In this document: positions 6,922-55,197 of the stretch, piece by piece
Position numbering within the stretch: the first letter of the stretch is position 1
Layout of the letters: each line of letters starts with the position of its first letter
NCBI GenBank assembly: GCA_951406725.2
Contig: OX597815.1
Span: 60,078,001 to 60,142,000, forward strand
Direction of reading: 5' to 3'
Source of the DNA: Octopus vulgaris
Lineage: Eukaryota
Length of the DNA: 64,000 nt
Notes under the pieces: model-generated
What the model was told of the DNA's origin: nothing
Databases searched by the model: none
What the model saw: only the letters and a program-made list of their open reading frames with translations
Made by a program: the position numbers and the translations under genes

Positions 6922-7520
6922 GATCCACGGATAATTGTTTAATTATTAATGGTGAAACTTCGAAGTATAGATTTCACTGGTCCTTTTATATCTTTTCATA
7001 GTGTCTTGCACTTGTACATCCAACGCGCCGTTAAATTAGAATGCATGTTTCGTGGTTAGACGATTTGGAATCTACTTTAATCTTATATTTGAATATGATT
7101 TGCAGTCCTTGGACCGTTTTTTACGCATGCTGACTACTGATATAAGTTATTTTTTAATAATAATTTTTACCCTTAGTATTTATATTTTTAAACATTTTAG
7201 TTCTCGAGTAGGGTAATTCACTGCTAATTTATTCTGGCTTGACGTGCTAGTTGAATTGAACGCATGATGTATAATGGTGGAACTCGTTACGCACGTGTGT
7301 TCTTTCACGGAGATGGTATGTATTCGAGTTCTATTATTGCGTCCCCAGCGGATTCCACTGATGGTCCACGGATAATTGTTTAATTATTAATGGTGACACT
7401 TCGAAGTATGCAATTGACTGGTCTTTTTATATATTTTCATAGTGTCCTGCACGAGTACATCTAACGCGCTGTTAAATGACAACGCATTTTTCGCTGTTAG
7501 ACGATTTGGCGTCTACTTTC
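6922..7520 (+). mobile_element. Retrozyme-like module: 441-bp unit plus ~155-bp terminal direct repeat, each repeat with an HHR remnant
   Basis: 6924-7078 is repeated at 7365-7519 (diverged). HHR motifs at 6922-6973 (5' part lost) and 7352-7414. Confidence 0.7.
7352..7414 (+). ncRNA. Degenerate type I hammerhead ribozyme
   Basis: attcca-CTGATGG-tcca..tggt-GACA-cttcgaag-TA-tgcaat. The sister copy at 6922 supplies the canonical GA and GAAA. Helix III palindrome ACUUCGAAGU. Confidence 0.6.
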
Positions 7521-7539
7521 AGCATGTAATATATTGAAT

Positions 7540-8600
7540 ACATATATATATATATATATACACATACACACACATACGCACACACGCATATACTTATACA
7601 CATGCACACACACACACATACATACATACACCCATATACATACACACACACATACCTACATACTCCTATACGCACATACATACACACAGACATACACACA
7701 TACACACTCACACAAACATACACACACACATACTTACACACACACTCACCTGCACGCGCACACACATGCATGACAAACACCCATACACTCACACTCACAT
7801 ACGCACACACCAACATAAACACGCACACGCACACACACACCTACACTCCCACACACATACACACGCACCTACATACACACACGCACGCATACACACGCAT
7901 ACACACATACATTACACACGTACACACACACCTACATACACATGCATACACACACACACACAAACATGCACGGACACACCCAGACATACATACATACACC
8001 TATATACACACGCCCACACACCTACATACACACACATATACACACGCCCACACAGCTACATACACACACATACATACACACATACACGGACACACCCATA
8101 CATACTTACATACATACACCTATACACACACGCCTACACACCTACACACACACATGCACACACACACACATGTACGCACACACATATATACCCACACACA
8201 TGCACACACACACACATACGCACATACATGCACGCATGCACACGCGCACACCTACACACATACACACACACACACACACACGTACACATACACATACATA
8301 CATACACACACGCATACATACACCCATACACATACATGCATCCTACACACACATACATACACACTCACACATACATACACACACACGCACTCACTCACAC
8401 ACCTGTATGTTCGCGCACACACATGCACATACACACACTTCCCCACACCCACACGTACATACATACACACTCATACACATACACACACACATACTCACAT
8501 ACATTCATCGGACACACTGCCACCCAGACATACACACAGACACACTCACACATCCACACACACACATACGTACGCGCACACTCGCAGGCGCGCGCACACA
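7540..8600. repeat. Long degenerate (CA)n/(CATA)n microsatellite
   Basis: Direct reading; source of the spurious His/Thr-rich ORFs. Confidence 0.97.
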
Positions 8601-9289
8601 CGCGCTTGCGCCGGTTCGCGCACGCATGCGCGCCGCATGCACCTCGCCCTTGGACCCGACGAGACCTCCTGCCCGTTCCTGGGATGTCGCTTGTCGTTGG
8701 GTTTTCCCACGCCCGTCTCCGCGGGACCACTCTTCCATCTTCCCCTCCGCTGGAGTCCTTTTCCTTAACCCCCCCCCTTTTTTTTCCGTTACACACACGC
8801 GCACACATATACACACATTACTTAAACATATACATTACTCTTACACACATTCAATCTACTCGCCACTAATACTACCACGACACTGGACACACACACACAC
8901 TACTACTCAACACACGCTGGCACGCTACATACGCCCCCACCCCTTCCCCTCCCTCCCTTCCTCCTTCCTCCCTTGTCTTACTACTGACCTTTGTCTGCTA
9001 TGCTGCTGCTATGCTGACCACCGTCTCGCCCTACCTCACACGCCTACACACAGACGCACACACTAACACATACATATATTTTTTGTTTTTTTATCTCGCC
9101 TCACACACACACATACACACACGCACACGCACACACTCACACATACACACACATCTGTTGCGTTACCAACCTTGTCTCCACTCTTTTGCCTTTAAAAACC
9201 CACTTTGCTCTTGTTATCGTAAACATCCGCCTTTCACCATGTGTAACTCCTAACACCAGTCGTTTTTTTCTCTATCTCCGTTGCCCGCT

Positions 9290-9450
9290 CCGGGATCTTT
9301 CTTTCCTCTCTCTTCCTTCTTTATGTTTCCGACGAAGAGCTCCGCTCGAAACGTCATACCTCCCTGCTTCCATTTCCTGAGCGCCTATTAATAATAATAC
9401 TGTTATTGTTCCATTGTTGTTGTTTTTTTGTTTCCCGTTTGGATTAAAAT
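9290..9450 (+). mobile_element. PLE-type terminal repeat fragment ending in (TA)n
   Basis: Same family as 29139-29345 (minus). Architecture parallels the pLTR at 12878 (HHR, then cctgagcgcc..taata). Confidence 0.7.
9325..9359 (+). ncRNA. Minimal hammerhead ribozyme (U4C variant)
   Basis: gttt-CCGACGA-a-gagc-tcc-gctc-GAAA-cgt-C-atac; helix III palindrome ACGU. Confidence 0.6.
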
Positions 9451-9723
9451 TATATATATATATATATATATATATATATATATGTACAAGATAAGAAAAT
9501 GGAGAAATACATCTAAATCAAATATCAATTACCAGATAATACTCAATCACATACTTTATTAAACCACCACATAAGAGACTGTAGGGTTAAATATAAAAAG
9601 CAGAACAAATCAGTGTACATAAAGGCATGTACATAAAAAGTGTACATAAAAGAGTAATGTTGTAGAATATATATATAAAAGAGAATATAAATATAAGTAA
9701 ATATAAATATAAGTATAGATTAC

Positions 9724-52339: not shown

Positions 52340-53417
52340 ATTAACGAATATTGCTGATGTGCATTGTTCTGGCCTTACCCAAGATCAGTATATTCTACGC
52401 AATGCTTCATAGAAATTATTCCATTATAATATATATATATATATATATATATATATATATATATATATATAAATTTATGATGCACAGAAGCGTATATGAA
52501 ACCCAGTTGTGTGAAATAGGGAGATTTTGAGGAGTAAAGAGTAGGAAGATAGAGTGGGTGGGCGTGGGTAATAAACAAAGCAAAAGGCGGAGTGCGAGAA
52601 TTTGGTAGAGCATGAAAACAAGGCTTTTGCTCGGAACCGAAATACATGTACACTTGCATACACACCCGAACACATACACATACATAGCTCCTAGATACAC
52701 ATATACACACACTCACACATTGATACATATAACTCCCAGCACCCTCACGCCACACGCAAATACACATATACGTACAACACATGCAAATGCACACATCAAC
52801 ACAGACACCCCCATATATATATATATATATATATATATATATATATACACACACACGTACACAAACGCACATATGACTCCCCAACACAGACATACACATG
52901 GAAAAAACAAAGATACCTCCGCATACATATATGCGAGCATATACATATAGACACAATGGAAAGAAGACACGAGAGATAATGCCAGTGTTGGTGTTGTTGT
53001 CTGTGTGTAATAGATTAAGTGTGAAGACAAGATGGCGTCAGTGTGGTTGTGGTGGTGGAGAGGAGGTGAGAGGAAGTGATGGCATGTTTGGTCGGTAACG
53101 GAAGGGATGTCCTAGATAATTCTTTTGATGACAAGAGCAACGGCAGCAGCAACAACAACAATAACGTCACAACAATGATAACAACAACAACAACAACTAC
53201 AACAACAACCACAACGACCACAAATACGATAACAAAAAGAAAACTTCAAAAGCCACAAAACAAGTCGGCGAAGAGAACTTATAATAAAAAATCAGTAGTA
53301 GCAGCAGCAGCAGCAACAACAGCAACAATAACAACAAAGAATAGGTCCAACGCCAACAACAAGAACAAGAACATCAATAATAACCATTAAAAGCGTCAGA
53401 CCATATTCCAAACTCGA

Positions 53418-53459
53418 TGCCAGATGGAAGGACTAATCTCCTTCGAAATCAAGAAAGCA
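53418..53459 (+). ncRNA. Degenerate hammerhead-like motif
   Basis: tgc-CAGATGG-aagga-ctaatc-tcctt-c-GAAA-tcaaga-AA-gca; several core substitutions. Confidence 0.35.
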
Positions 53460-53597
53460 ACACTTCAGATGGAAATACTGAATAGTGTTGAAACACGCTC
53501 AATATTTCTGTACTACACAACATTACATGAAAATACCAGTACAAAATTTCATACGAATATATGATATAATATAGTGTACGCATATTATATATATATA

Positions 53598-54583
53598 TTT
53601 GTGTCTATGTTTTTCGTCTCTCTATGTGTTCGACGTCTTTTTGGTGTCCTGTACACATATATGCGTGTATATGTACATGTAGAGGTAGGTACGTACATAT
53701 ATGTTTATATATATGCATATATTTTATTAACATATTATACGACTAAACGCACGCACCCTATTAAGTAAGATTGTTCTGTTTATCAAGTTCGCCTTGATAT
53801 TAACTCTCACGCGACTCTGCATCTTTCTTTCTTTCTCTCCCATTCTCTCCCATTCCCTTTTTCGTCTTTTTTCCCTCACTTAACTTGTCTCTTCCTCTCT
53901 CTCTCCCCCTCACTGTTCTTCATGGTCTCCTCGCACCATTCCCCTTCTTCTCTCTCTTCCTCTTGCTCCTCCTCCCCATTCCCGTCGTCCATCTGCGACG
54001 TTACTTCCGTCGTAACTGCTCCTGTCCTTTCTCGCCCGCCTTCTAAGGCCACTGGTCGACATCTTCCTCTCTCGTCGTCCACTATAATCCAGCGTTTGCA
54101 ATACTTTTTTCGTCTGGCGTTAACAGCCCTTCTTATCTTGTTCTCCTTGTCCTGTCTCTCACTGTTATATATTTATTTTTCCACTGTTTATATATATATT
54201 TTTTATTGTTTATATGTTTGTACTGTCGTTACCGTCTTGCTTTTTTTACCCCTCTGCAAAAAGATCTCAGAATTTTAATTGATTTGCTTTTCGCAGGAAG
54301 GAATTTTTCATTCGAAGTATACGTCTCGCTTTTATCCTTCGAAACGTTTAGTAGATGAAACTTTAGCGACTGAAGAAGGGGATTTTTCGTTGTGCTTATT
54401 GTCCTGTATCTCTCTCTCTTTTTTTTTGCCTGTCTTGTTCCTTGGTTTGTGTCTATGTTTTTCGTCTCTCTATGTGTTCGACGTCTTTTTGGTGTCCTGT
54501 ACACATATATGCGTGTATATGTACATGTAGAGGTAGGTACGTACATATATGTTTATATATATGCATATATTTTATTAACATAT
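53598..54583 (+). mobile_element. Non-coding PLE-like module: 848-bp unit with identical 138-bp terminal direct repeats in (TA)n
   Basis: 53598-53735 is identical to 54446-54583; pyrimidine-rich interior; HHR-like elements at 54334-54383. Confidence 0.8.
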
Positions 54584-54812
54584 ATATATATATATATATA
54601 TATATATATATATACAAAAATTACAATTATAAGCTTACCGATAATGGTTCTTTTAACATACCGAACTACTTGGTAAGATTATTAATTATAAATTGATTAA
54701 TAAATTTACCCTTTATTATTATTGATTATATATACATACATATATATATATATATATATATATATATATATATATATATATATATATATATACATATATA
54801 TATAAATGGATA

Positions 54813-55197
54813 TCACAACCGTGACAGAAGGCGCTGATTAGCACCGATTTTGCTAAAAATAAGAGTTAAAATAACTCAAAAGCTGCAAAAACACTTACTT
54901 AATGACTGGCGAAGGGAGGTAAGTCCACAGCGTATATGGTCGGCTTGCGATTTCGGATTTTGATGTAGACCATCCTAATCTTCATCAGCGACTGACAAAG
55001 GAAGTGGAGTTTAACCCTAGGTGTTAAGAGTCGCTAATGGTCTACATCAAAATCAGAAATCGCGATCCCGCTATGCATGCTGGGAATCTACGTCCCTTTG
55101 TCGGTCATTAAGACAGTGCTTTTGTGGCTTTTGAGTTGTTTTAACTCTTATTTTTAGCAAACGCGGTGCTAGTCAGTACCCTCTGTCACTTTTGTGA
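54813..55197. mobile_element. Head-to-head inverted pair of an HHR-bearing terminal repeat
   Basis: 54813-54992 is mirrored (diverged) by 55029-55197; the right arm lacks part of the core. Confidence 0.8.
54939..54992 (-). ncRNA. Type I hammerhead, canonical core, decayed helix III
   Basis: Minus strand: gtcg-CTGATGA-agatt..gatg..catc..aatcc-GAAA-tcgcaa-GC-cgac. The mirror copy retains GAAA-tcgcga-TC. Confidence 0.6.

Follow-up and report, generated by a model that had tools for sequence, protein, structure and literature searches.

Hammerhead ribozymes with a minimal or small palindromic helix III have been described in the pseudo-LTRs of metazoan Penelope-like elements (PLEs), for which action as dimers was proposed and low activity shown (Cervera and de la Pena, 2014, PMC4209133). 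According to Fig. S3 of that paper, different families have different helix III palindromes (hereafter, words), and a minimal 4-nt word is found across phyla. Small PLE hammerheads with a very short palindromic stem III are reported to cleave as dimers (Lunse, Weinberg and Breaker, RNA Biol, as described in PMC6765202), and in several ribozymes the palindromic stem and loop III pair fully in the dimer (Perreault et al., 2011, PMC3088659, legend of Fig. S8). In the double hammerheads of the newt and ASBVd, two tandem copies in one RNA form an elongated helix III (Forster et al., 1988, cited in PMC6155905, PMC6765202 and PMC4209133), and the published dimers act between tandem copies within one RNA (PMC6155905). 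In invertebrates, canonical hammerheads whose helix III consists of 2 bp and a tetraloop cleave efficiently as single copies (PMC7229834). An origin of the metazoan non-LTR retrozymes from PLE pseudo-LTRs has also been proposed (Cervera and de la Pena, 2020, PMC7229834; Li, Clavereau and Pollet, 2026, 10.64898/2026.07.22.740005). Published work already covers the palindromic helix III, the dimer fold and words that go by family (PMC4209133, PMC3088659).

Here, we analyzed a 64,000-nt stretch of the Octopus vulgaris genome (contig OX597815.1, positions 60,078,001 to 60,142,000, forward strand; hereafter, the window). Its hammerheads resemble those described in PMC4209133 in their type I topology, long helix II with an additional base ahead of it, palindromic positions 15.2-16.2 and loop 3, U3.A8 core variant, and large number of sequence families per genome. 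They differ from them in that most families have longer words (typically 8 nt, up to 12) and some helix II regions are 40-100 nt long. In the available text of PMC4209133, the words are not considered as a possible recognition code. The families also resemble the dimers of PMC3088659 and of newt/ASBVd, and a comparison of word sharing within a genome is absent from the available parts of PMC3088659. The association with PLEs and the short palindromic stem III are shared with the variants of Lunse, Weinberg and Breaker, whose study may already include mismatch or family tests. Like non-LTR retrozymes, some families form non-coding tandem units of a few hundred bases (441, 469, 485 and 534 nt) with one type I hammerhead each; retrozymes are documented by circular RNA and cleavage, whereas the present families are known from DNA sequence. 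No proposal of a palindrome barcode was found in the literature searched, which covers work on PLE hammerheads incompletely.

Hammerhead copies in the window

All 19 helix III words listed in a preliminary description of the window were found at their positions, each on one strand and immediately 3' of core positions G12-A13-A14 (at 7398, A14 is replaced by C). The sites belong to 12 genomic repeat families, and the typical copy of every one has a hammerhead core and helices I and II. At the family level, the core boxes, a non-G cleavage site, three helices and an open helix I were found in 12 of the 12 families, in type I calls that allow the core variants U4C, A6U and U3.A8. Nine of the 19 window copies are damaged (6957, 7398, 10674, 11143, 12788, 17770, 27325, 28430 and 55059). 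The gathering score of Rfam RF00163 (Hammerhead_1), a model ill-suited to minimal and long-armed forms, was reached by only two sites, 51450 and 51935. Four further copies were missing from the earlier list (near 28731, 29049, 54944 and 55854), and the word is broken in three of them. The features are as follows.

6910..6973, + strand: hammerhead copy of the 7398 family with a destroyed core and a perfect palindrome of 10 nt; first unit of a 441-nt tandem pair
7351..7414, + strand: hammerhead copy of the 7398 family with two core changes, A9G and A14C
9323..9361, + strand: minimal hammerhead of the 29247 lineage; 4-nt word, U4C core
9722..9852, - strand: hammerhead of the young 9729 family, whose copies are 98% alike; it has a U4C core, a helix II region of 100 nt and the 8-nt word of the 28430 family
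10632..10692, + strand: hammerhead of the young 10674 family; 12-nt interrupted palindrome, G17 here and A17 in most copies; tandem unit of 469 nt
11101..11161, + strand: second tandem copy of the 10674 family; G17
12781..12835, - strand: decayed copy of the 17770 family (12788 site); helices broken, word a private double change
12958..12997, + strand: minimal hammerhead in the 5' pseudo-LTR of a PLE (12987); family-wide A6U core, 4-nt word
13840..16955, + strand: PLE with broken reading frames (RT and GIY-YIG); in intact relatives (L444) the frame has about 820 aa
17091..17130, + strand: minimal hammerhead in the 3' pseudo-LTR of the 13840..16955 element (17120), 4133 nt after the 12987 copy
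17730..17784, + strand: hammerhead of the 17770 family; 8-nt word common to the 35937 family, C3G damage
27318..27358, - strand: inverted copy of the 28430 family (27325), truncated ahead of the core, which is absent
28382..28444, + strand: hammerhead of the 28430 family (U4C common); A9U damage
28724..28765, - strand: missed copy, U3.A8-core hammerhead of the L442 PLE family; core decayed, 6-nt word intact
29020..29061, + strand: missed copy, inverted partner of 28724..28765; first word base changed
29240..29278, - strand: minimal hammerhead of a young, high-copy short family (29247); standard core, 4-nt word
35930..35988, - strand: hammerhead of the 35937 family; word as in the 17770 family, helix I different
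36409..36468, - strand: intact hammerhead of the 36416 family; 6-nt word
51443..51512, - strand: intact type I hammerhead (51450), scoring 34.4 bits with RF00163; the downstream member of a 485-nt tandem pair
51928..51997, - strand: intact type I hammerhead (51935); RF00163 34.5 bits; upstream unit of the same 485-nt pair
52301..52342, - strand: minimal hammerhead (52308); U3.A8 core, A/U-only 4-nt word, 3-bp helix I
54937..54994 (approximate), - strand: missed copy, paired with 55059 in inverted orientation; its core is intact and its word broken
55020..55073, + strand: copy of the 55059 family; a 12-nt deletion removes the core
55847..55934, - strand: decayed copy, also missed, from another family with an 8-nt word (cluster 15); word broken

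The other Rfam matches in the window were mostly microsatellite-driven miRNA noise, and microsatellites also dominated the output of the repeat finder.

Helix III words within and between families

The window contains ten 8-nt palindromes, against a mean of 2.1 and a maximum of 6 in 200 shuffles, whereas 4-nt and 6-nt words are at the level of chance (14 vs 12.7 and 4 vs 6.1 in shuffles, respectively); the case for the shorter words rests on the family evidence. A palindrome-blind descriptor scan of 80 stretches of 10 kb (800 kb of the genome) gave 54 matches, in which the palindrome was perfect in 28, G.U-compatible in 6, with one mismatch in 5, of odd length in 2 and absent in 13. No perfect palindrome occurred among 98 matches in ten shuffles, and the self-complementarity of helix III that had been read from the window is thereby confirmed. 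By hand count, the palindrome is perfect in 22 of the 25 families with 8-nt words, and in about 8 of the 44 families collected below it is interrupted in such a way that a hairpin of 3-5 bp could close. The helix III palindromes of these hammerhead families are real and in excess of shuffles.

Words do not vary freely within families, the outcome that the preliminary description had named as telling against its proposal. The family's commonest word was carried by 263 of 360 copies, in searches that favor the majority word because the query included it and the best 30 copies per family were kept; the remaining copies had a G.U-compatible variant (27), another perfect palindrome (1), a broken word (67) or an unreadable one (2). 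The word at 12788 does not represent a family of its own, since the site is a decayed 17770-family copy and none of 18 word-blind genome matches carries that word.

The statement that the word tracks the family holds for its stability within families but not as a one-to-one relation. In the window, 12 families use nine words, three of which are each used by two families (9729 and 27325/28430; 17770 and 35937; 9351/29247 and 12987/17120). To extend the count, 57 clusters were reduced to a set of 44 families, so that the genome holds at least 44. Clusters 28, 29, 32, 35, 38, 41, 48, 49, 52, 54 and 55 were dropped for having no self-complementary word, being probable chance matches of which a few may be real, and clusters 36, 45, 50 and 56 were dropped as single decayed copies; cluster 51 was merged into 22, clusters 11, 14 and 42 were re-read by hand, 0 and 6 were split, and L466 was added. 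These 44 families have 26 words, and 27 of them share theirs with another family (hand count). The 22 families with perfect 8-nt words have only 10 distinct words, against 12.1-18.7 expected from random draws. Pairs with a common word number 24 among them, where random draws from pools of 64, 32 and 16 words would give 3.6, 7.2 and 14.4; the excess is weak against the pool of 16 (P = 0.02 for pairs and 0.10 for distinct words). Since the families that share words are partly related, this null shows the absence of over-dispersion rather than convergence. Eight young families carry seven different words, and their one sharing pair in 28 is the rate expected from the genome-wide 34/946 (hand arithmetic). 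Sharing above random draws is the opposite of an orthogonal code, and because many families use one word, the palindrome alone is not a private family code. The suggestion of about ten orthogonal palindromes serving as a self/non-self barcode is not supported by these counts.

Penelope-like elements and non-coding families

The 12987 and 17120 motifs lie in terminal direct repeats flanking RT and GIY-YIG frames, and the hammerhead of the L442 family (the missed 28731 and 29049 copies) likewise lies in PLE terminal direct repeats; a link to pseudo-LTRs was seen for 2 of 14 window families. A Pfam search with the broken PLE frames of the window gave no match, whereas intact relatives matched RVT_1 and GIY-YIG. 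A PDB sequence search gave 0 matches. PLE pieces were sparse, lying in only 17-18 of the 440 loci plus the window. In the L259-type GIY-YIG clade, which is decayed, no frame among 150 matches is longer than 275 aa, and the hammerhead of this clade was present at 4 of the 20 ends examined. An RT beside a 17770-family copy in L035 was rejected as the element of that family, as it belongs to a younger element with another hammerhead.

Four intact autonomous families were sampled (L441, L442/443, L444 and L466), and they have four different words. Sister autonomous elements with 69% protein identity have words that differ by one compensated pair. It had been suggested that non-autonomous modules might share the palindrome of their helper, and on this the evidence leans negative. 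Although the short 29247 family has the word of the related autonomous L444 family, the words of the young non-coding families 9729, 10674 and L410 match none of the four intact families, which are an incomplete sample, and L410 has no DNA similarity to the element family with its word. Three non-coding tandem pairs are present in the window (units of 441, 469 and 485 nt), with a longest ATG frame of ≤ 53 aa, and L410 forms arrays of up to 13 units of 534 nt. Among the five PLE families sampled, no pseudo-LTR homology to the tandem families was found.

Predicted double-hammerhead folding and the possible role of helix I

In the 51935-51450 tandem, the palindromes are predicted to pair with each other and both helix I arms to be swapped, with agreement between the minimum-energy and centroid structures. 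The predicted double fold is dominant in three of four distinct descriptor-found tandem pairs and in 10674/11143, or four of six distinct pairs overall, which is in line with the published view, repeated in the preliminary description, that a palindromic helix III suits double-hammerhead folding. It was not predicted for one tandem with a 4-nt word, and for 6957/7398 it was predicted only at about 0.4. In every tandem fold, the probability of an intramolecular helix III was close to zero. Tandem copies are predicted to fold as double hammerheads in which both helix I and helix III are exchanged. Most copies stand without a close tandem neighbor, since only 29 of the 360 have a partner on the same strand within 1.5 kb. 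Within families, compensated double changes occurred in 45 of 1574 helix I cells and 8 of 1055 helix III cells, a comparison that counts copies rather than events and leaves out clusters 11 and 38; when recurrent types of change are counted, the figures are 6 of 48 pairs and 1 of 34 (P = 0.23). Helix I covariation is visible between subfamilies, with six recurrent types. Judged by eye, several families with the same word have incompatible helix I arms (17770/35937, clusters 5/16, 12/26 and 13/L442), and in others the proximal helix I arms are identical or nearly so (9729/28430/cluster 44; 29247/17120/cluster 47; clusters 18/37).

We consider it likely, from the sequences and folding models, that the sites represent type I hammerhead motifs from many PLE families and their non-coding tandem offshoots, with the palindrome probably kept for double-hammerhead cutting, the words inherited slowly and no palindrome code under selection. 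Two copies, usually neighbors in one transcript, would fold into a double hammerhead and cut, each catalytic half pairing with the other copy through helix III and, as predicted, also through helix I. The word would be inherited as a slow lineage character, rarely changing because one substitution would upset two base pairs of the symmetric duplex, and helix I would drift faster by ordinary compensated changes. As helix I is exchanged and more often compensated, a family's preference for its own kind, if there is one, would be a by-product of helix I and helix III divergence by descent, not a selected palindrome code. It is highly unlikely that the palindrome by itself is a selected partner code, such that a family activates only with its own word and non-autonomous modules copy the word of their helper. 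The near fixation of words within families, the four words of the four intact autonomous families and the one-pair difference between sisters are what a barcode predicts, and the word common to 29247 and L444 also agrees with it. The code is already contradicted at the level of uniqueness, however, both by the sharing of words in 27 of 44 families and 3 of 9 window words and by the occurrence of the minimal 4-nt word in several phyla (PMC4209133, Fig. S3); the young non-coding families 9729, 10674 and L410 do not follow the four intact elements sampled, and since helix I is also exchanged in the predicted fold, the palindrome cannot be the whole address.

A combined address of helix I and helix III that insulates co-active families, kept divergent by selection against cross-cleavage, would account for the same-word pairs with incompatible helix I arms, the recurrent compensated changes between subfamilies and the seven words of eight young families. 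We regard it as improbable: other same-word groups have the same or nearly the same proximal helix I arms, the sharing of words among young families is as frequent as expected, the observed pattern would also follow from neutral compensated drift, and published dimers pair tandem copies of one RNA, so that a search for partners would be needless (PMC6155905). Selected insulation would represent a new layer of competition among mobile elements. We give similarly little weight to a two-part address, the palindrome plus the faster-changing helix I arms, by which dozens of co-resident families would be protected while co-active from mutual cutting or activation, and in which new families would arise through compensated helix I changes and rarer palindrome switches through G.U intermediates, with limited cross-talk between families of the same word; this would amount to RNA-level reproductive isolation among transposons. 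That many families cut as monomers, with the palindrome merely tolerated or auxiliary, has very little probability in our estimation. Hammerheads with a 2-bp helix III and a tetraloop cleave well singly (PMC7229834), the interrupted palindromes of about 8 of 44 families could close a hairpin, and genomic copies are mostly solitary; yet a monomer has no need of a self-complementary loop, which is perfect in 22 of 25 families with 8-nt words, 4-nt words are unable to close a hairpin, and the predicted tandem folds contain practically no intramolecular helix III.

The double-hammerhead design preferred here is known, and the finding mostly adds examples; its value is practical. The at least 44 families form a ready test panel, among them natural pairs that agree in word but differ in helix I, as well as sister elements whose words differ. 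It suits the question of the shares of helix III and helix I in dimer specificity and in cross-family RNA cutting, on which the literature searched yielded no data. The sampled DNA contains about 55 descriptor-intact motifs per Mb.

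Hammerhead families and their helix III words

The palindromic helix III of the hammerheads in this window is a real feature, and of a known kind. The preliminary description had listed 19 self-complementary words, i.e., short helix III sequences by whose window positions sites and families are named here. All 19 were found, each directly after the core letters G12-A13-A14 on one or the other strand. Every word begins at core position A15.1 and ends at U16.1, which leaves a single free pair in the 4-nt words. Relative to 200 shuffles, 8-nt palindromes were enriched in the window (10 versus 2.1, maximum 6), and 4-nt and 6-nt words occurred at chance level. 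To remove the selection bias of that list, we scanned eighty 10-kb stretches, placed at round positions on 16 contigs, with a palindrome-blind descriptor that required only the core, helix I, and helix II. The 54 matches comprised 28 perfect palindromes, 6 G.U-compatible words, 5 with one mismatch, 2 of odd length, and 13 without a palindrome, 4 of which were 4-nt words decayed by a single base. Ten shuffles of this sample yielded 98 matches and no perfect palindrome (Fisher P = 7e-16 versus 28/54), and the motif excess over shuffles was about 55 per Mb.

We performed 12 family searches and took 30 genomic copies from each (360 in total); in the copy alignments, hammerhead architecture was present in every family. 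All 19 sites belong to such families, and four further window copies had been overlooked. Among the 19 listed copies, 9 are damaged, and the Rfam threshold was reached by 51450 and 51935 alone. In several families, many or even most genomic copies have a variant core: U4C in the 9729 and 28430 families and part of the 29247 lineage, A6U in the 12987/17120 family, and U3.A8 in the 52308 family.

Cervera and de la Pena (2014; PMC4209133) describe palindromic helix III, with several sequence families in one genome, the U3.A8 variant, and dimers of low activity; Perreault et al. (2011; PMC3088659) show a palindromic stem/loop III with a dimer model and mention U4C.

The host genome (2.8 Gb, 227 contigs) contains the window at G000:C2:60078001-60142000, where microsatellites and retroelement fragments are abundant. 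Further features are listed below.

Features of the window (forward-strand coordinates; L-numbers are sampled loci outside it)
9722-9852 (L331-L360): 9729-family hammerhead, young, 98% alike, at least 1067 first-look candidates, missed by Rfam; U4C core, branched helix II region of 100 nt
10674-10685 (L211-L240, L286, L324): 10674 word, a 12-nt interrupted palindrome that would put a tandem G.A pair mid dimer helix; in older relatives, word length and sequence vary and self-complementarity is kept
12958-12997 and 17091-17130 (L151-L180, L444): A6U core of a young, high-copy autonomous Penelope-like element (PLE) family; nearly all copies U6, position 7 variable
27247-28514, 28724-29061, and 54900-55110: hammerhead copies in head-to-head inversion
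10500-10585 and 51157-51242: near-perfect inverted repeats flanking a TA microsatellite, adjoining tandem hammerhead units
237-689, 31562-31945, and 41320-48414: other mobile-element pieces (integrase zinc-binding piece, DDE transposase piece, LINE-type RT frames)
36663-37552 and 39934-40825: 892-nt direct duplication, 98% identity, without a hammerhead match

Penelope-like elements and non-coding tandem families

Two direct repeats, spaced by 4133 nt, carry sites 12987 and 17120 and flank broken reading frames; L444, an intact relative of these frames, has an RT and a weak GIY-YIG match. Since U6 is near-universal while position 7 varies, the A6U change looks fixed in a still-spreading PLE family. 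Intact frames, 774-826 aa long, occur in at least four PLE families (L441, L442, L443, L444, L466), which also have many near-identical copies. Two of these families use the U3.A8 core; L441 occurs in head-to-tail tandems of 4271 nt and carries a further frame (454 aa) upstream.

Three window pairs are non-coding tandem units with periods of 441, 469, and 485 nt, the same layout as in non-LTR retrozymes. A 2026 preprint argues that retrozymes are PLE derivatives (Li, Clavereau and Pollet, 10.64898/2026.07.22.740005). Outside the window, L410 is a young tandem family with a 534-nt period that dominates the first 100 of 2424 genome-wide pattern matches, which include a few of the 51450 family. 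Its arrays (G000:C1:40931787-40938500 and similar) contain up to 13 units, often with an inverted copy at the end.

Words within and between families

The proposal that the word tracks the family held within families: the commonest word occurred in 263 of the 360 copies, a count inflated by queries that included the word and by retention of the best copies. The remainder comprised 27 G.U-compatible variants, 1 other perfect palindrome, 67 broken words, and 2 unreadable copies. With a word-blind pattern, 17770-family matches carried the family word in 10/18 cases, single variants in 7/18, and a double variant in 1/18; the 12788 word was found in none of these 18.

Between families, a barcode of orthogonal palindromes, by which each family would recognize its own kind, fails on both uniqueness and dispersion. 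The window has 9 words among 12 families, and a single word is common to each of three pairs of separate families (9729/28430, 17770/35937, 29247/17120). A descriptor run over all loci then sampled gave 57 clusters, reduced by removals and re-readings to 44 families with 26 words; 27 of the 44 share their word with another family. Perfect 8-nt words occur in 22 families, which use 10 such words between them and form 24 sharing pairs; pools of 64, 32, and 16 words would give 3.6, 7.2, and 14.4 pairs. Relatedness accounts for part of this sharing, so over-dispersion is excluded and convergence is not proven. In Fig. S3 of PMC4209133, where words are listed by family, the minimal 4-nt word is common to several phyla, and one word occurs in two Aedes families and is absent from a third. 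Among the papers available to our literature search, none proposed a palindrome barcode.

Young families were examined apart because old families cannot interfere with them. The four intact PLE families (L441, L442/443, L444, L466) have four different words and protein identities of 28-69%. Together with the short or non-coding families 29247, 9729, 10674, and L410, this set of 8 has 7 words and 1 sharing pair out of 28. At the overall rate of 34/946 pairs (calculated by hand), 1.0 such pair would be expected, so word avoidance is not indicated. The word of the 29247 family is that of L444, a relative (77% over 83 nt). The words of 9729, 10674, and L410 match none of the four intact families in an incomplete PLE sample; that of L410 is also the word of an old, decayed PLE clade, to which no DNA similarity was found.

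Predicted double folds and change of words

For the 51935-51450 tandem, a double hammerhead was predicted in both minimum-energy and centroid structures: the palindromes pair over 8 bp, and the 5' helix I arm of each copy pairs with the 3' arm of the other. The double fold was favored by pair probabilities at 10674/11143 and in 3/4 distinct tandem pairs located by the descriptor; the decayed pair 6957/7398 reached ~0.4, and one pair with 4-nt words was close to zero. Because helix III and helix I are both swapped in the predicted fold, the partner would be read through two helices, as in any trans-acting hammerhead. That the two helices jointly insulate families seems improbable. In the 12 clusters with good sampling, helix I had the higher share of compensated double changes (45/1574 cells versus 8/1055 in helix III); counted by recurrent type, the difference was not significant (6/48 versus 1/34, P = 0.23). 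By eye, helix I arms of same-word families were incompatible in some cases and nearly identical in others.

Reviews (including PMC6155905) describe the dimer as made by tandem copies within one RNA, and PMC7229834 reports canonical invertebrate hammerheads able to cleave as monomers. Within 1.5 kb of the 360 copies, a partner on the same strand was present for 29 and an inverted partner for 73. As close same-strand partners are few, the majority of solo copies are probably either inert remnants or dependent on a partner in trans.

The word is probably inherited and drifts slowly, its self-complementarity being kept by stabilizing selection. Related families can differ in their word: the 51450 and L410/L415 hammerheads have helix II ends in common and different words, and the L442 and L466 words are one compensated pair apart. 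In raw counts, 15 word pairs lie one compensated step apart, 4 of them of the CpG-to-TpG/CpA type, and CpG-type changes make up 38/97 single-base departures from words. These counts suggest that words may drift by way of G.U intermediates. Several family words in descriptor clusters 4/7/8, 5/12/16/26, and 15/17/18/37/39 are linked by paired CpG-type transitions, and in one family G.U intermediates are the majority form.
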